Numbered from the stretch's first letter, positions 1 through 5,921 are shown. The stretch: 5,921 nucleotides of DNA from Escherichia coli (GCF_003334815.1 NZ_QOWO01000069.1), one strand, 5' to 3'. The notes: a model not told the origin generated them from the letters alone. Made by a program: numbers and translations.

Positions 1-315
1 GACCCGCCGCAACGACGAAGAGCGCGTGCGCGAAACGGCGTTGCCCCTCACATCCCGGCGGCCTTTTGCCGGGATGCAGGGAGCGCAGGCCACGGCGCGA
101 CAGAGGCGGCGCGACCGGAACGGTCGCTGCAAGCCAGGGGTTTCGCGTCAGGGATGGAAGCCCGTCAGGGCGGAGACAGCTTCGCTGGCTCCGTTCACGA
201 CAGCCCGCCCCGTCAGGGGGACGCCCGGAAAAGGCATAAGCAGGAGAACAACAAAACAGACAGTAATCAGGACAGCAGTAATCAGAGTCAGAACAGGAGG
301 AAAAAGAGAATAATC
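1..315. repeat. Copy A of a ~290-bp direct repeat; candidate Frpo/ssi-type single-stranded-DNA promoter element (begins at the window edge, so may be truncated)
   Basis: Positions 51..270 are identical base for base to 5682..5901 (220 bp); 1..50 matches 5631..5681 with a few substitutions and one indel. Internal dyad symmetry: 51-59/68-76 (9-bp stem), 111-117/121-127 (7-bp stem), 29-36/140-147, and imperfect long-range pairing 37-51/212-225. Purine-rich 3' tail. Functional call is inference from position in an IncF leading region. Confidence 0.6.
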
Positions 316-464
316 AAAGGGAAGGTGATGTGATTTCTGACAGGTCATAAACAGAGAAGGCGGGGGAAAAGAACGGGCGCCGCAGGCGCACGTTCATCCC
401 CGTTCCCGGAGGGAAACGGCCTTCCTGGCAGTCTGGTTGTTCATGCCCGCACAATGCCAGCAAG

Positions 465-570
465 GGGAAAGGGGCCACCGGCGAACCAGCAGCCCCTTTA
501 TAAAGGCGCTTCAGTGCAGTCAGACCAGCATCAGCCCTGAAAAGGCGGGCCTGCGCCCGCCTCCAGGTTG
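465..570 (-). terminator. hok mRNA 3' region: GC hairpin immediately after the hok stop (544-550/555-561) plus terminator-like hairpin (471-476/491-496) followed by T-run on the minus strand; contains the presumed fbi element
   Basis: Minus-strand sequence closely matches the 3' end of the R1 hok mRNA as I recall it. Stem-loops seen directly in the sequence. Confidence 0.5.
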
Positions 571-732
571 CTACTTACCGCCGGATTCGTAAGCCATTGT
601 TGCCGTAACTTCCCTGTATCCGTCCTTCAGCCGGACTTCGCACAGGCGATTCCGGGTCAGGAGTGTGAATATCAACAACGTGCAGCACACGATTAATACG
701 CACCAGATAAGGGCGTTTCCCGGTAGTTTCAT
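571..732 (-). CDS. hok: Hok-family type I toxin (small membrane-depolarising peptide), 53 aa
   Basis: Hand translation of minus strand from ATG at 732 to TAG at 571-573 gives [53 protein letters not shown], which closely resembles R1 Hok (hydrophobic N-terminus, conserved LCE and MAYESG motifs). RBS AAGGAGGAG about 6 nt upstream. Absent from the ORF track because it is under 60 aa. The symbol flmA/srnB is equally possible depending on the plasmid. Confidence 0.85.
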
Positions 733-790
733 GGTTTACTCCTCCTTGCAATTTGCACGGTAAGAGGCCATACTGACGTGGATGAGACAT
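575..790 (-). CDS. mok: Mok-like overlapping reading frame (translation of hok is coupled to it)
   Basis: 71-aa ORF in a different frame that starts upstream of hok (ATG at 790) and overlaps almost all of hok, ending 4 nt before the hok stop; this is the characteristic mok/hok arrangement. Confidence 0.6.
746..774 (+). promoter_or_regulatory. Candidate sok promoter: -35 TTGCAA (746-751), 17-nt spacer, -10 CATACT (769-774)
   Basis: Plus-strand sigma70-like hexamers opposite the mok translation initiation region, at the position of the sok promoter in R1 hok/sok. The -10 is weak (4 of 6 match). Confidence 0.4.
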
Positions 791-845
791 ACAGTGGGCC
801 TCGTGGGTTAATGAAAATTAACTACGGGGCTTTCTGCTTTCTGCC
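780..845 (+). ncRNA. sok: Sok-like antisense RNA (antitoxin of the hok/sok system); ends approximate
   Basis: Inferred from the hok/mok architecture: an antisense RNA of about 64 nt starting just after the candidate promoter and complementary to the hok mRNA leader / mok start. Coordinates estimated, not measured. Confidence 0.4.
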
Positions 846-900
846 ACACGACAGGATAACAAACCACCTTCACGTCATGAGGCAGAAAGCCTCAAGCGCC

Positions 901-940
901 GGGCACATCATAGCCCATATACCTGCACACTGACCACACT
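901..940 (-). promoter_or_regulatory. Candidate hok/mok promoter; -10 TATGAT at 907-912 on the minus strand, transcript 5' end near 900
   Basis: Minus-strand sequence from 900 downward (GGCGCTTGAGGCTTTCTGCCTCATGACGTGAAGGTGG...) matches the 5' end of the R1 hok mRNA as I recall it. TATGAT lies 6 nt upstream of that 5' end. The -35 is not clear. Confidence 0.45.
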
Positions 941-1146
941 CACTTTCCCTGAAAATAATCAGGTCGTTCAGCCAGTTCCCGGGCAATCAGTTCATCCGCA
1001 AACAGTGGTGCATGCCTGTTGATACGTTTCTCCAGATTCCGCCGTCGTACCGCAGCCTTACGTTCTTCGCTCCAGCGGCGCACCGGGCGGTCAGAAATAA
1101 AATCCAGACAGACCGCATACCCTGCTCCGGCAACCCAGCGTGACAT
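940..1146 (-). CDS. Hypothetical small protein (68 aa from ATG at 1146; the track ORF extends to a GTG at 1287 and would overlap the psiA 3' end)
   Basis: Open frame between psiA and the hok promoter. C-terminal part is charged and helix-like (RRWSEERKAAVRRRNLEKRINRH...). No convincing Shine-Dalgarno before ATG 1146. Start and reality both uncertain. Confidence 0.3.
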   Translation of the reverse strand: MSRWVAGAGYAVCLDFISDRPVRRWSEERKAAVRRRNLEKRINRHAPLFADELIARELAERPDYFQGK

Positions 1147-4423: not shown

Positions 4424-4483
4424 GATTATTCCCTTTATGGTTTAGTTAATGTCTGCCGGACGCCTTCCCGTCCGGCACCTCTC

Positions 4484-4717
4484 TTACTTAAGAATGCCGA
4501 AATCCCGGATGACATGGTTCATCCAGTACCCGGCACCGTCCTCAAAATTCCAGGTACGCCAGACCATTGCACCGTTATTACGGACAACCAGGCGAAAATG
4601 TTCTCCGTGGTCATCCTCGATAAAGACGTTCCGGTACTGTTCAGCAACAGCTTCGGCATGTTTGCGGGTAAAAGGACCATCAGGCAGCCCCTGAAGTATT
4701 CTGAAATATTCGCTCAT
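4484..4717 (-). CDS. Small DUF905/YkfF-like protein (77 aa from ATG at 4717; alternative starts ATG 4723 or GTG 4744)
   Basis: Compact ORF between ssb and the ParB-like gene. Sequence ([67 protein letters not shown]...) resembles the DUF905 family (E. coli YkfF) from memory. GGAGAG sits about 6 nt upstream of ATG 4717. The GTG at 4744 lies in the loop of an intergenic hairpin, so is unlikely to be the start. Confidence 0.6.
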
Positions 4718-4774
4718 ACTCATCTCTCCGGTGATGCCCCGCACAGGACGGGGCGGTTATCACGATCAGCCCGA

Positions 4775-5302
4775 TCAGAACGGAATGTCGTCATCGAAGT
4801 TATACGCGGGTTCAGACGGCTGCTGAGGCTCGGGCTGCGCGGCCTTACGTCCACGGCCTTTCGTTTTCGCGCCTCCTTTTTTCGGTTCCGGCTGTGGTTC
4901 CTGCTGAGGCTGACCGCTGAACTGTTGTGCCTCTTCCGGCTGAGTCTGAGCACCTGCGGCACGTCCCAGCATCTGCATGGTGCCCGTGGTCTTAACAAGA
5001 ATTTCAGTGACGTAACGGGTGATACCGTTATCTTCCCAGCTACGGGTACGGAGTTGCCCCTCGATGTAGACCTGCTCGCCCTTGTGCAGATATTCACCGG
5101 CCACTTCCGCGAGCTTGCCGAACAGCACCACGCGATGCCATTCTGTCTGCTCCCGTATCTCCCCCGTCTGTTTGTCACGCCAGCTTTCTGACGTGGCCAC
5201 CTGCAGGTTTGCCACTGCGCCCCCGTTTGGGATGTAACGGACTTCCGGATCTTTTCCCAGACGACCGACAAGAATGACCTTGTTAATGCCACGAACTGCC
5301 AT
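4775..5302 (-). CDS. ssb: Plasmid-encoded single-stranded DNA-binding protein, 175 aa
   Basis: Translation from ATG at 5302 ([48 protein letters not shown]...[19 protein letters not shown]...) has the SSB OB-fold core, a Gln/Pro-rich linker and the acidic C-terminal tail DDDIPF. Strong RBS AAGGAG 7 nt upstream. The track ORF begins 13 codons upstream (5341), but the RBS-supported ATG is at 5302. Confidence 0.92.
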
Positions 5303-5485
5303 GATGTATCTCCTTCTGTTGATGTTTTCAGCCCCCATCATCTTTTGAGTTTCGGGAGCCGCGGTTTTGACGTTTTGCGGGGACCTGCCTTTTGTTCCCT
5401 ACGGTATTCACCATCACCTTTTTGAGAACCTTCGCCGCAAGGGGCATCACTGCCACGGCCTGACGCACCTGTCCTGGGCAGAACG

Positions 5486-5521
5486 CAAAATTTTTTACCG
5501 GGTTCTGGGTAAAAAATTTTG
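5486..5521. repeat. Perfect 14-bp AT-rich inverted repeat (CAAAATTTTTTACC / GGTAAAAAATTTTG) with 8-nt spacer; candidate operator or structured regulatory site upstream of ssb
   Basis: Arms 5486-5499 and 5508-5521 are exact reverse complements; an extra C-G pair at 5484/5523. No flanking T-run on either strand, so unlikely to be an intrinsic terminator. Confidence 0.6.
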
Positions 5522-5630
5522 TGGGCTGTTCATTTACCCTGGACAGTCAGTGCGGCAGGTTGTGGCTGTATCAGCCCCCGGCGACAGGGGCTTAAACAGG
5601 TGAATGGCACCGGACACAACAACGGGCAGG

Positions 5631-5921
5631 GACCCGCCGCAACGACGTGAAGCGCGGTTTGCGAAACGGCGTTGCGCCTTACATCCCGGCGGCCTTTTGC
5701 CGGGATGCAGGGAGCGCAGGCCACGGCGCGACAGAGGCGGCGCGACCGGAACGGTCGCTGCAAGCCAGGGGTTTCGCGTCAGGGATGGAAGCCCGTCAGG
5801 GCGGAGACAGCTTCGCTGGCTCCGTTCACGACAGCCCGCCCCGTCAGGGGGACGCCCGGAAAAGGCATAAGCAGGAGAACAACAAAACAGACAGTAATCA
5901 GAGCAGCAGAAAAAAGAAGAA
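5631..5921. repeat. Copy B of the ~290-bp direct repeat; candidate Frpo/ssi-type single-stranded-DNA promoter upstream of the ssb operon (runs to the window end, so may be truncated)
   Basis: 5682..5901 is identical to 51..270; flanks diverge. Begins about 330 nt upstream (minus-strand sense) of the ssb start codon. Same internal hairpins as copy A. Confidence 0.6.

Follow-up and report, generated by a model that had tools for sequence, protein, structure and literature searches.

Background

The principle that the leading genes of conjugative plasmids are templated by the transferred strand (T-strand) was reportedly published by Masai and Arai in 1997, by Couturier in 2023, by Samuel in 2024 and in Nucleic Acids Research (NAR) in 2025. 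Here, we examine a stretch of 5,921 nucleotides (nt) of Escherichia coli DNA (GCF_003334815.1, NZ_QOWO01000069.1), hereafter called the window, which carries the ssb, psiB and psiA genes of such a leading region, a hok/sok cassette and, just upstream of ssb, a hairpin akin to Frpo2, a promoter of the F plasmid that operates on single-stranded DNA (ssDNA). Left, right and plus strand refer to the strand as presented. In F, Frpo2 stands upstream of ssb-yfjA-yfjB-psiB-psiA-flmC, and about 5 kb, including flm, separate it from Frpo1. The leading genes have the T-strand as their template; ygfA, which faces the other way, is expressed only once the DNA has been converted to double-stranded DNA (dsDNA) (PMC9849209).

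In both F and pESBL, the expression of the leading genes precedes the conversion of single-stranded to double-stranded DNA, needs Frpo1 and Frpo2, and fails for ygfA (PMC9849209, PMC12672017). Post-mating RNA sequencing (RNA-seq) and 5' rapid amplification of cDNA ends (RACE) have been performed on pESBL, and RNA-seq also on F (PMC12672017). The orientation rule was established on leading-region gene families, the 300 most prevalent ones in a set of 21,907 potential conjugative elements, and experiments with Frpo-acrIIA4 showed that inverting or relocating a Frpo-driven gene abolishes its benefit (PMC11541004). Confirmed by live-cell imaging, engineered inversions and post-mating RNA-seq, the rule is textbook knowledge for F and the IncI plasmids.

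Comparison of the window with F and IncI plasmids

On sequence grounds, the window is the conserved leading-region core of an F-like conjugative plasmid, in reverse orientation to F. More than 5000 enterobacterial plasmids match it, of which the best 5000 include 4323 typed as conjugative; the best database identity is 96.6% (PLSDB and complete E. coli genomes). It is collinear with positions 58070-63704 of F (NC_002483), on the opposite strand, at 89-94% identity. The matches to ssb, psiB and psiA (NF010292, NF010255 and NF010258) all exceed the curated cutoffs, i.e., the ssb-psiB-psiA module is present, and all genes of the window are intact. The relatives have an identical gene set, with all genes on the same strand.

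The leading region of F (Frpo1-flmABC-psiA-psiB-yfjB-yfjA-ssbF-Frpo2; NC_002483 ~58.0-63.7 kb) agrees with the window in its genes and in their order and relative orientation. It likewise bears two repeat units of ~590 bp that are ~5.6 kb apart with hok/sok in between, and a hairpin of ~300 nt directly upstream of ssb; with respect to the F nick sequence, the close relatives of the window agree with F in both position and strand. The difference is only allelic, the window having its own psiA allele; furthermore, the window ends inside the Frpo1 unit, leaving ygeA, ygeB, the SLT gene (ygfA/orf169) and the origin of transfer (oriT) outside.

The IncI1 and IncI-gamma/K plasmids (ColIb-P9, R64 ssi1-3, the class 1 ssDNA promoters of pESBL) have the same ssb-DUF905-ParB-like-psiB-psiA block, with the same polarity relative to the nick site (nic), and homologous hairpins in the same sense. 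They differ from the window in their identity (~86% over 63-64% of the window), in the presence of ardA in place of hok, in their relaxase, which is MOBP (NikB, nick CATCCTG^T) instead of MOBF (TraI), and in the distance of oriT (~4.5-6 kb versus ~2.1-2.5 kb).

From these comparisons and the lines of evidence presented below, we propose, with a probability of roughly 0.88, that the window is the leading-region core of an F-like plasmid, that its plus strand would be the T-strand, nicked a few kb to the left, and that its leftward transcription would be driven by the Frpo2-type hairpin.

Position and strand of the nick site in relatives

In F, the transferred strand is cleaved at 5'-TTTGCGTGGGGTGT^GGTGCTTT-3', with TraI linked to the 5' phosphate (PMC2504302; PMC3074121), and therefore the DNA located 3' of the nick enters first. 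A TraI-type nick sequence would read TTTGCGTRGKGTGT^GGTGCTTT or take the form of the CTTGCGACGGGTGT^GGGC variant. First, the standard record of F has the nick motif between traM and the SLT gene, on its minus strand, and ssb, psiB and hok on its plus strand; the nicked strand is therefore their template. Second, an exact copy of the F motif occupies L004 6845-6866, on the plus strand of the plasmid p600468_158 (L004; 96.5% identity over 96% of the window), 2.1 kb left of the position equivalent to the window start. Third, three other F-like relatives (L002, L005 and L006) have a divergent nic-like motif, CTTGCGACGGGTGTGGG(G)C, on the plus strand of the traM-SLT interval, 2.3-2.5 kb to the left in L002 and L005, and 5.4 kb to the left in L006, where an IS110 is inserted. 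The strict F motif has no match in L002, and the nic-like variant was found by reading its traM-SLT intergenic region, followed by a fuzzy search. Fourth, in two IncI-gamma/K1 relatives of the MOBP type (L009 and L010), CATCCTG^T follows its 5' inverted repeat ~4.5-6 kb to the left, upstream of nikA and again on the plus strand; the MOBP nick consensus is (C/T)ATCCTG(C/T) (PMC3772185).

Altogether, eight distinct relatives were examined, and seven of them keep oriT, on the left. In all seven (five F-like MOBF plasmids including F, and two MOBP plasmids) the nick motif lies to the left on the plus strand, the leading genes point towards nic, and the motif is opposite to the coding strand. The right flanks of the relatives contain no oriT-like or tra-like sequence over 9-20 kb, and carry leading-region and maintenance genes (methyltransferase, DUF3560, antirestriction genes, DUF1380, parM or sopAB). 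A preliminary description of the window had placed the nick site to the left, beyond position 1, which is borne out by homology; the arrangement named there as contrary, with oriT to the right or in the opposite orientation, occurs in none of the relatives. We infer that oriT would also lie immediately to the left in this particular replicon. As plasmids are circular, "left" is meaningful only as nearby left, an assignment drawn from gene content and from relatives and not from strand bias.

The SLT transglycosylase gene (e.g., L004 6812-7459, plus strand), which the relatives carry between oriT and the leading genes, is the first to enter and lies on the strand opposite to the other leading genes, so it is not readable from the T-strand, which matches the ygfA exception reported for F. 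In L004, the annotated start of this gene overlaps the nick motif.

The hairpin upstream of ssb

The segment 5330-5660, folded as plus-strand DNA, reaches -89.5 kcal/mol (z = -8.5), and none of 100 shuffled sequences folds as well; its complement reaches -83.2 kcal/mol (z = -8.0). The hairpin, the base of which is 56 nt from the ssb ATG, is 94.9% identical to Frpo2 and 88.9% identical to Frpo1 of F, and it matches both the functional Frpo2-acrIIA4 construct and the F ssiD sequence (Samuel et al. supplements, PMC11541004). It is also 98.8% identical to the best-matching copy in each of five conjugative relatives. All full-length Frpo-like copies in the loci of the eight relatives (18/18) are oriented as the window copy. 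Furthermore, for all of the 14 Frpo/ssi sequences compared (the window copy and 13 homologues, including ColIb-P9 ssi1-3, a Serratia sequence and a metagenomic element), the window-plus sense folds better than the complement by 8-17 kcal/mol, and its G-T pairs are at least equal in number (14/14). This predicted asymmetry is supportive evidence, from within the window, for the plus strand as the functional single strand.

An alignment of seven Frpo-type sequences, combined with the pairing ladder, yielded two candidate pairs of promoter boxes, a scan of the hairpin for sigma-70 promoters having returned nothing relevant. The pair on the left arm is TTGAGA (5422-5427), a 17-nt spacer and CATCAC (5445-5450); that on the right arm is TGGACA (5540-5545), a 23-nt spacer and TATCAG (5569-5574). 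Both converge on one internal loop (5446-5448/5570-5573), the A at the -11 position is unpaired in each candidate -10 box, and in both geometries RNA polymerase would travel to the left along the plus strand. It is worth noting that the Frpo1-type copy of relative L002 (pHN32_1) is devoid of the hairpin core (8874-9040): of the 331-nt query it retains only positions 1-82 and 247-331, side by side.

Proposed sequence of entry and expression

In the proposed pathway, the relaxase would nick the plus strand a few kb left of position 1, and the 5' end would enter the recipient first. The window would follow from left to right, in the order repeat A, hok, an open reading frame (ORF) of 104 amino acids (aa), psiA, psiB, the ParB-like gene, the DUF905 gene, ssb, the Frpo2 hairpin and repeat B, in about 10 s at the rate of ~620 nt/s reported for F (PMC9849209). 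The order given in the preliminary description (hok, psiA, psiB, ParB-like, DUF905, ssb, repeat copy B) holds, with the Frpo2 hairpin placed ahead of repeat B. Once inside, the hairpin segment (5358-5658) would fold into a structure of ~300 nt mimicking a double-stranded sigma-70 promoter, from which the host RNA polymerase would read the T-strand 3' to 5', i.e., leftwards, to produce, while the complementary strand is still absent, the minus-sense mRNA of ssb, DUF905, ParB-like, psiB and psiA. Each operon would enter promoter-last and be transcribed, ssb first, in the opposite order to its entry. The synthesis of the complementary strand would then destroy the hairpin and shut the promoter off. 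Both the transcription of ssDNA and the use of the T-strand as template are taken from the literature on F and would apply to the window by analogy; on the template, the preliminary description is in agreement with the published experiments (PMC9849209, PMC11541004), and the strand-specific RNA-seq after mating that it named as a check is already in print for pESBL and F (PMC12672017).

Evidence against the proposal and alternative explanations

Several points weigh against this proposal. Co-orientation alone does not imply the T-strand, and it is not diagnostic because this polarity is shared by the tra operon, which lies past oriT. The preliminary description had reasoned from the uniform gene orientation to the T-strand; its conclusion is upheld by the relatives and the published experiments, its inference from co-orientation alone is not. 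The fold asymmetry is weakened, as supportive evidence, by the relatedness of the sequences and by a nearest-neighbour energy model that is itself strand-asymmetric, and neither candidate hexamer pair scores 9/12 with canonical spacing. No exact source of the window was found in the plasmid, E. coli genome, species-representative genome and metagenome collections. In the eighth relative, the Escherichia albertii plasmid NZ_CP030780.2 (L001), an IS100 element (L001 18057-19858) lies between the leading region and traB, and oriT, traM, traJ, traY, traA, traL, traE and traK have been lost via IS100. This plasmid is still typed conjugative, and its remaining tra genes are on the left.

The last point against it comes from a metagenome contig. 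A window-specific 78-mer of psiA, without match in the species-representative genomes, has a single exact match, on contig L007 (ERZ773221 NODE-5355). There, an integrase and not oriT is found ~3.3 kb left of the position equivalent to the window start: a P4-type integrase gene (67-1392; NF007246, E 7e-75) lies left of DUF932 and ygeA-like genes. The psiB gene of this contig is truncated and followed by an unrelated ORF of 329 aa. The junction of integrase and leading-region genes is not covered by any database record; either the element was rearranged or the contig is an assembly chimera. We rejected this contig as the source of the window, since its P4-type integrase and its truncated psiB mark it as a mosaic and as another element.

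These observations bear on the alternative that survives best, namely that the strand assignment is right for the family but that the module has been separated from oriT in this replicon, so that there is no functional nick just to the left. The separation would have occurred through a deletion or inversion mediated by an insertion sequence (IS), through integration into a chromosome or a genomic island, or in a non-conjugative derivative. Such events are exemplified by the loss of the oriT-to-traK stretch through IS100 in L001, and, among the matches listed, 149 matching places are on E. coli chromosomes and 282 matching plasmids are typed non-mobilizable. Moreover, contig L007, which shares the psiA allele of the window, has its integrase where SLT, oriT and traM are expected, and the window starts and ends inside a repeat, like a short-read contig. 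Against separation stand the large majority of conjugative types among the best-matching plasmids (4323/5000), the retention of oriT on the left in seven of the eight distinct relatives, the intactness of the window genes and the 98.8% identity of the hairpin to its best copy in five conjugative relatives. On balance, we regard a separated module as unlikely, and we favor the proposal of a plus strand nicked just to the left.

According to a second alternative, the uniform orientation reflects an ordinary operon organisation or co-orientation with replication, and its agreement with the T-strand is coincidental. Co-oriented gene blocks are indeed common on plasmids, and the tra operon, of the same polarity, is not expressed from ssDNA. 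However, a coincidence would not account for the lost benefit of inverted or relocated Frpo-driven genes (PMC11541004), for a polarity to nic that is kept across the unrelated MOBF and MOBP relaxases, or for Frpo copies that are all co-oriented and fold better in the T-strand sense, which makes this explanation very improbable. Finally, a transferred minus strand with oriT right of the window has next to no chance of being correct, as no support was found for it beyond the fact that the hairpin also folds as minus strand (structure alone being not decisive), whereas nick motifs are on the left and on the plus strand in 7/7 relatives with an intact oriT, and the right flanks (9-20 kb) have only leading-region and maintenance genes.

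Genes of the window

The features of the window are collected in Table 1. Genes were called by listing ORFs in six frames and searching the NCBIfam and Pfam families.

Table 1. Features of the 5,921-nt window, with the basis of each assignment.
Feature	Coordinates	Strand	Basis or remark
Repeat copy A	1-286	plus	Distal part of the ~590-bp unit carrying the upstream Frpo1-type element
hok-family type I toxin gene (flmA equivalent)	571-732	minus	NF007279, E 8.2e-30, over the curated cutoff; annotated Hok/Gef in relatives
mok-like reading frame, overlapping hok	575-790	minus	ORF list; DUF5431 fragment at the equivalent place (PGAP)
hok mRNA 5' leader	730-901	minus	RF01794, 98.2 bits (gathering score 59), E 5e-22
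Predicted sok promoter and Sok antisense RNA	746-845	plus	Read from the sequence; Sok ~781-845
ORF of 104 aa	940-1254	minus	ORF list; hypothetical protein WP_000872086.1 in relatives
psiA	1251-1970	minus	NF010258, E 4e-125
psiB (SOS inhibitor)	1967-2401	minus	NF010255, E 2e-83
ParB-like protein, 655 aa (yfjB equivalent)	2456-4423	minus	TIGR00180 N-terminal ParB domain, E 3e-17
DUF905 protein (yfjA equivalent)	4484-4717	minus	PF06006, E 4e-33
Plasmid ssb, 175 aa, ATG at 5302	4775-5302	minus	NF010292, E 9e-109
Frpo2-type (class 1 ssi) ssDNA promoter, imperfect hairpin of ~300 nt just upstream of ssb	5358-5658	plus	Fold and homology
Repeat copy B	5631-5917	plus	Distal part of the repeat unit; overlaps the last 28 nt of the hairpin 3' arm

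Every coding sequence (CDS) with homology support is on the minus strand, as stated in the preliminary description and borne out by the ORF listing and the family matches, and so are the mok-like frame and the 104-aa ORF. The preliminary description also takes the plus strand as template throughout, which holds for the CDSs; it would not extend to the Sok antisense RNA, which is expected on the plus strand (see below). The location of 8/8 genes on one strand has a two-sided p of ~0.008 assuming independent genes, a weak statistic because the genes, belonging to one or two operons, are not independent. On the plus strand, the longest three ORFs, of 187, 225 and 126 aa, gave no family match and are antisense to ParB, ssb and ParB, respectively.

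The NF010292 match aligns with residues 14-188 of a longer ssb ORF, and a CDS of 528 nt is annotated in the relatives. The ParB-like gene is collinear with the CDS of the ParB/RepB/Spo0J family of F (record positions 59538-61496). The start of the 104-aa ORF overlaps the psiA stop codon (ATGA); this ORF, without match in Pfam and NCBIfam, is conserved and called "hypothetical" in every relative.

The hok/sok cassette

The cassette displays a Hok-family toxin ORF, an overlapping mok frame and a structured leader, as expected of a type I hok/sok system. In these features, including the match of the leader to RF01794, it resembles hok/sok (R1 parB) and flm (F); unlike in those systems, the Sok RNA and its promoter are only predicted in the window. 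A promoter-like site (TGGTCA-18-TATGAT, minus strand, 936..907) precedes the hok leader, and the RF01794 match terminates exactly at the hok AUG. Though named "sok antitoxin", RF01794 marks the hok leader, as it matches the hok-sense strand from the mRNA start to the AUG. Reading this Rfam match as a Sok RNA on the minus strand was consequently rejected, since it spans the interval from the hok promoter to the hok AUG. The hok allele of the window presumably differs from the hok and flmA sequences.

The Sok antisense RNA should occupy the plus strand at ~781-845, a placement based on the established hok/sok architecture, and it would be the sole functional element expected on that strand; therefore, the plus strand would not be the template throughout. 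Its putative promoter (TTGCAA 746-751, a 17-nt spacer and CATACT 769-774) scores 8/12, under the threshold of the promoter scan.

The strand asymmetry of hok/sok could act as an establishment checkpoint, a speculative idea that we consider decidedly doubtful. The hok-sense RNA is co-stranded with the Frpo2-driven operon, and read-through from the incoming ssDNA could yield the toxin mRNA; a scan of the minus strand found no terminator-like site between psiA and hok. Sok would come from the other strand, hence only after the synthesis of the complementary strand. If the idea is true, the recipients failing to make the plasmid double-stranded would be preferentially poisoned. Couturier et al. 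merely list flmC among the genes downstream of Frpo2 (PMC9849209).

Repeats and window edges

The window is bracketed by a direct repeat of ~290 nt, the two copies of which are 97% identical (1-26 corresponds to 5631-5656, and 30-286 to 5661-5917). Alignment to F shows that the true repeated unit, of ~590 bp, consists of the hairpin and this distal part, and window positions 5324-5912 also align with F 13425-14012, the Frpo1 region. Copy A is therefore only the distal part, the left edge of the window cutting a Frpo1-type unit: bases 1-28 are the outermost bases of the 3' arm of a Frpo1-type hairpin, the body of which lies left of the window. Copy B is moderately structured (z = -3.1) and was rejected as a Frpo element or promoter, the real hairpin being the one described above.

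The window both starts and ends within one 97%-identical repeat, as would a short-read contig broken at a repeat, and such a breakage may be the cause of the lack of flanking sequence. The two copies also constitute a substrate for deleting the intervening 5.6 kb, and Couturier et al. propose that hok/sok guards against such repeat-mediated deletion.

The plus-strand ORFs of the repeats (26-313, 66-239 and 5604-5870) were rejected as genes: they are Arg-rich, PGAP calls only frameshifted pseudogenes there, and the longest repeat ORF is in a different reading frame in copy A and copy B. In the relative L008 (NZ_CP025850.1), the equivalents of the window repeats and hairpin are located at 3209-3414, 3482-3803, 8836-9041 and 9112-9544. 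The RefSeq/PGAP annotation of this replicon calls "single-stranded DNA-binding protein, frameshifted" pseudogenes over the Frpo hairpins, and frameshifted "hypothetical protein" pseudogenes over the distal repeat, on the opposite strand. These calls are probably spurious, on conserved non-coding DNA.

Significance

The present finding is a correct rediscovery of an already known principle and adds no new biology. The rule that it follows, i.e., leading genes that are templated by the transferred strand, point towards nic and are driven by hairpin ssDNA promoters, explains how anti-SOS, anti-restriction and anti-CRISPR functions are expressed within minutes of plasmid entry. In practice, strand bias together with Frpo-type hairpins can serve to orient a plasmid fragment relative to oriT when its flanks are missing.

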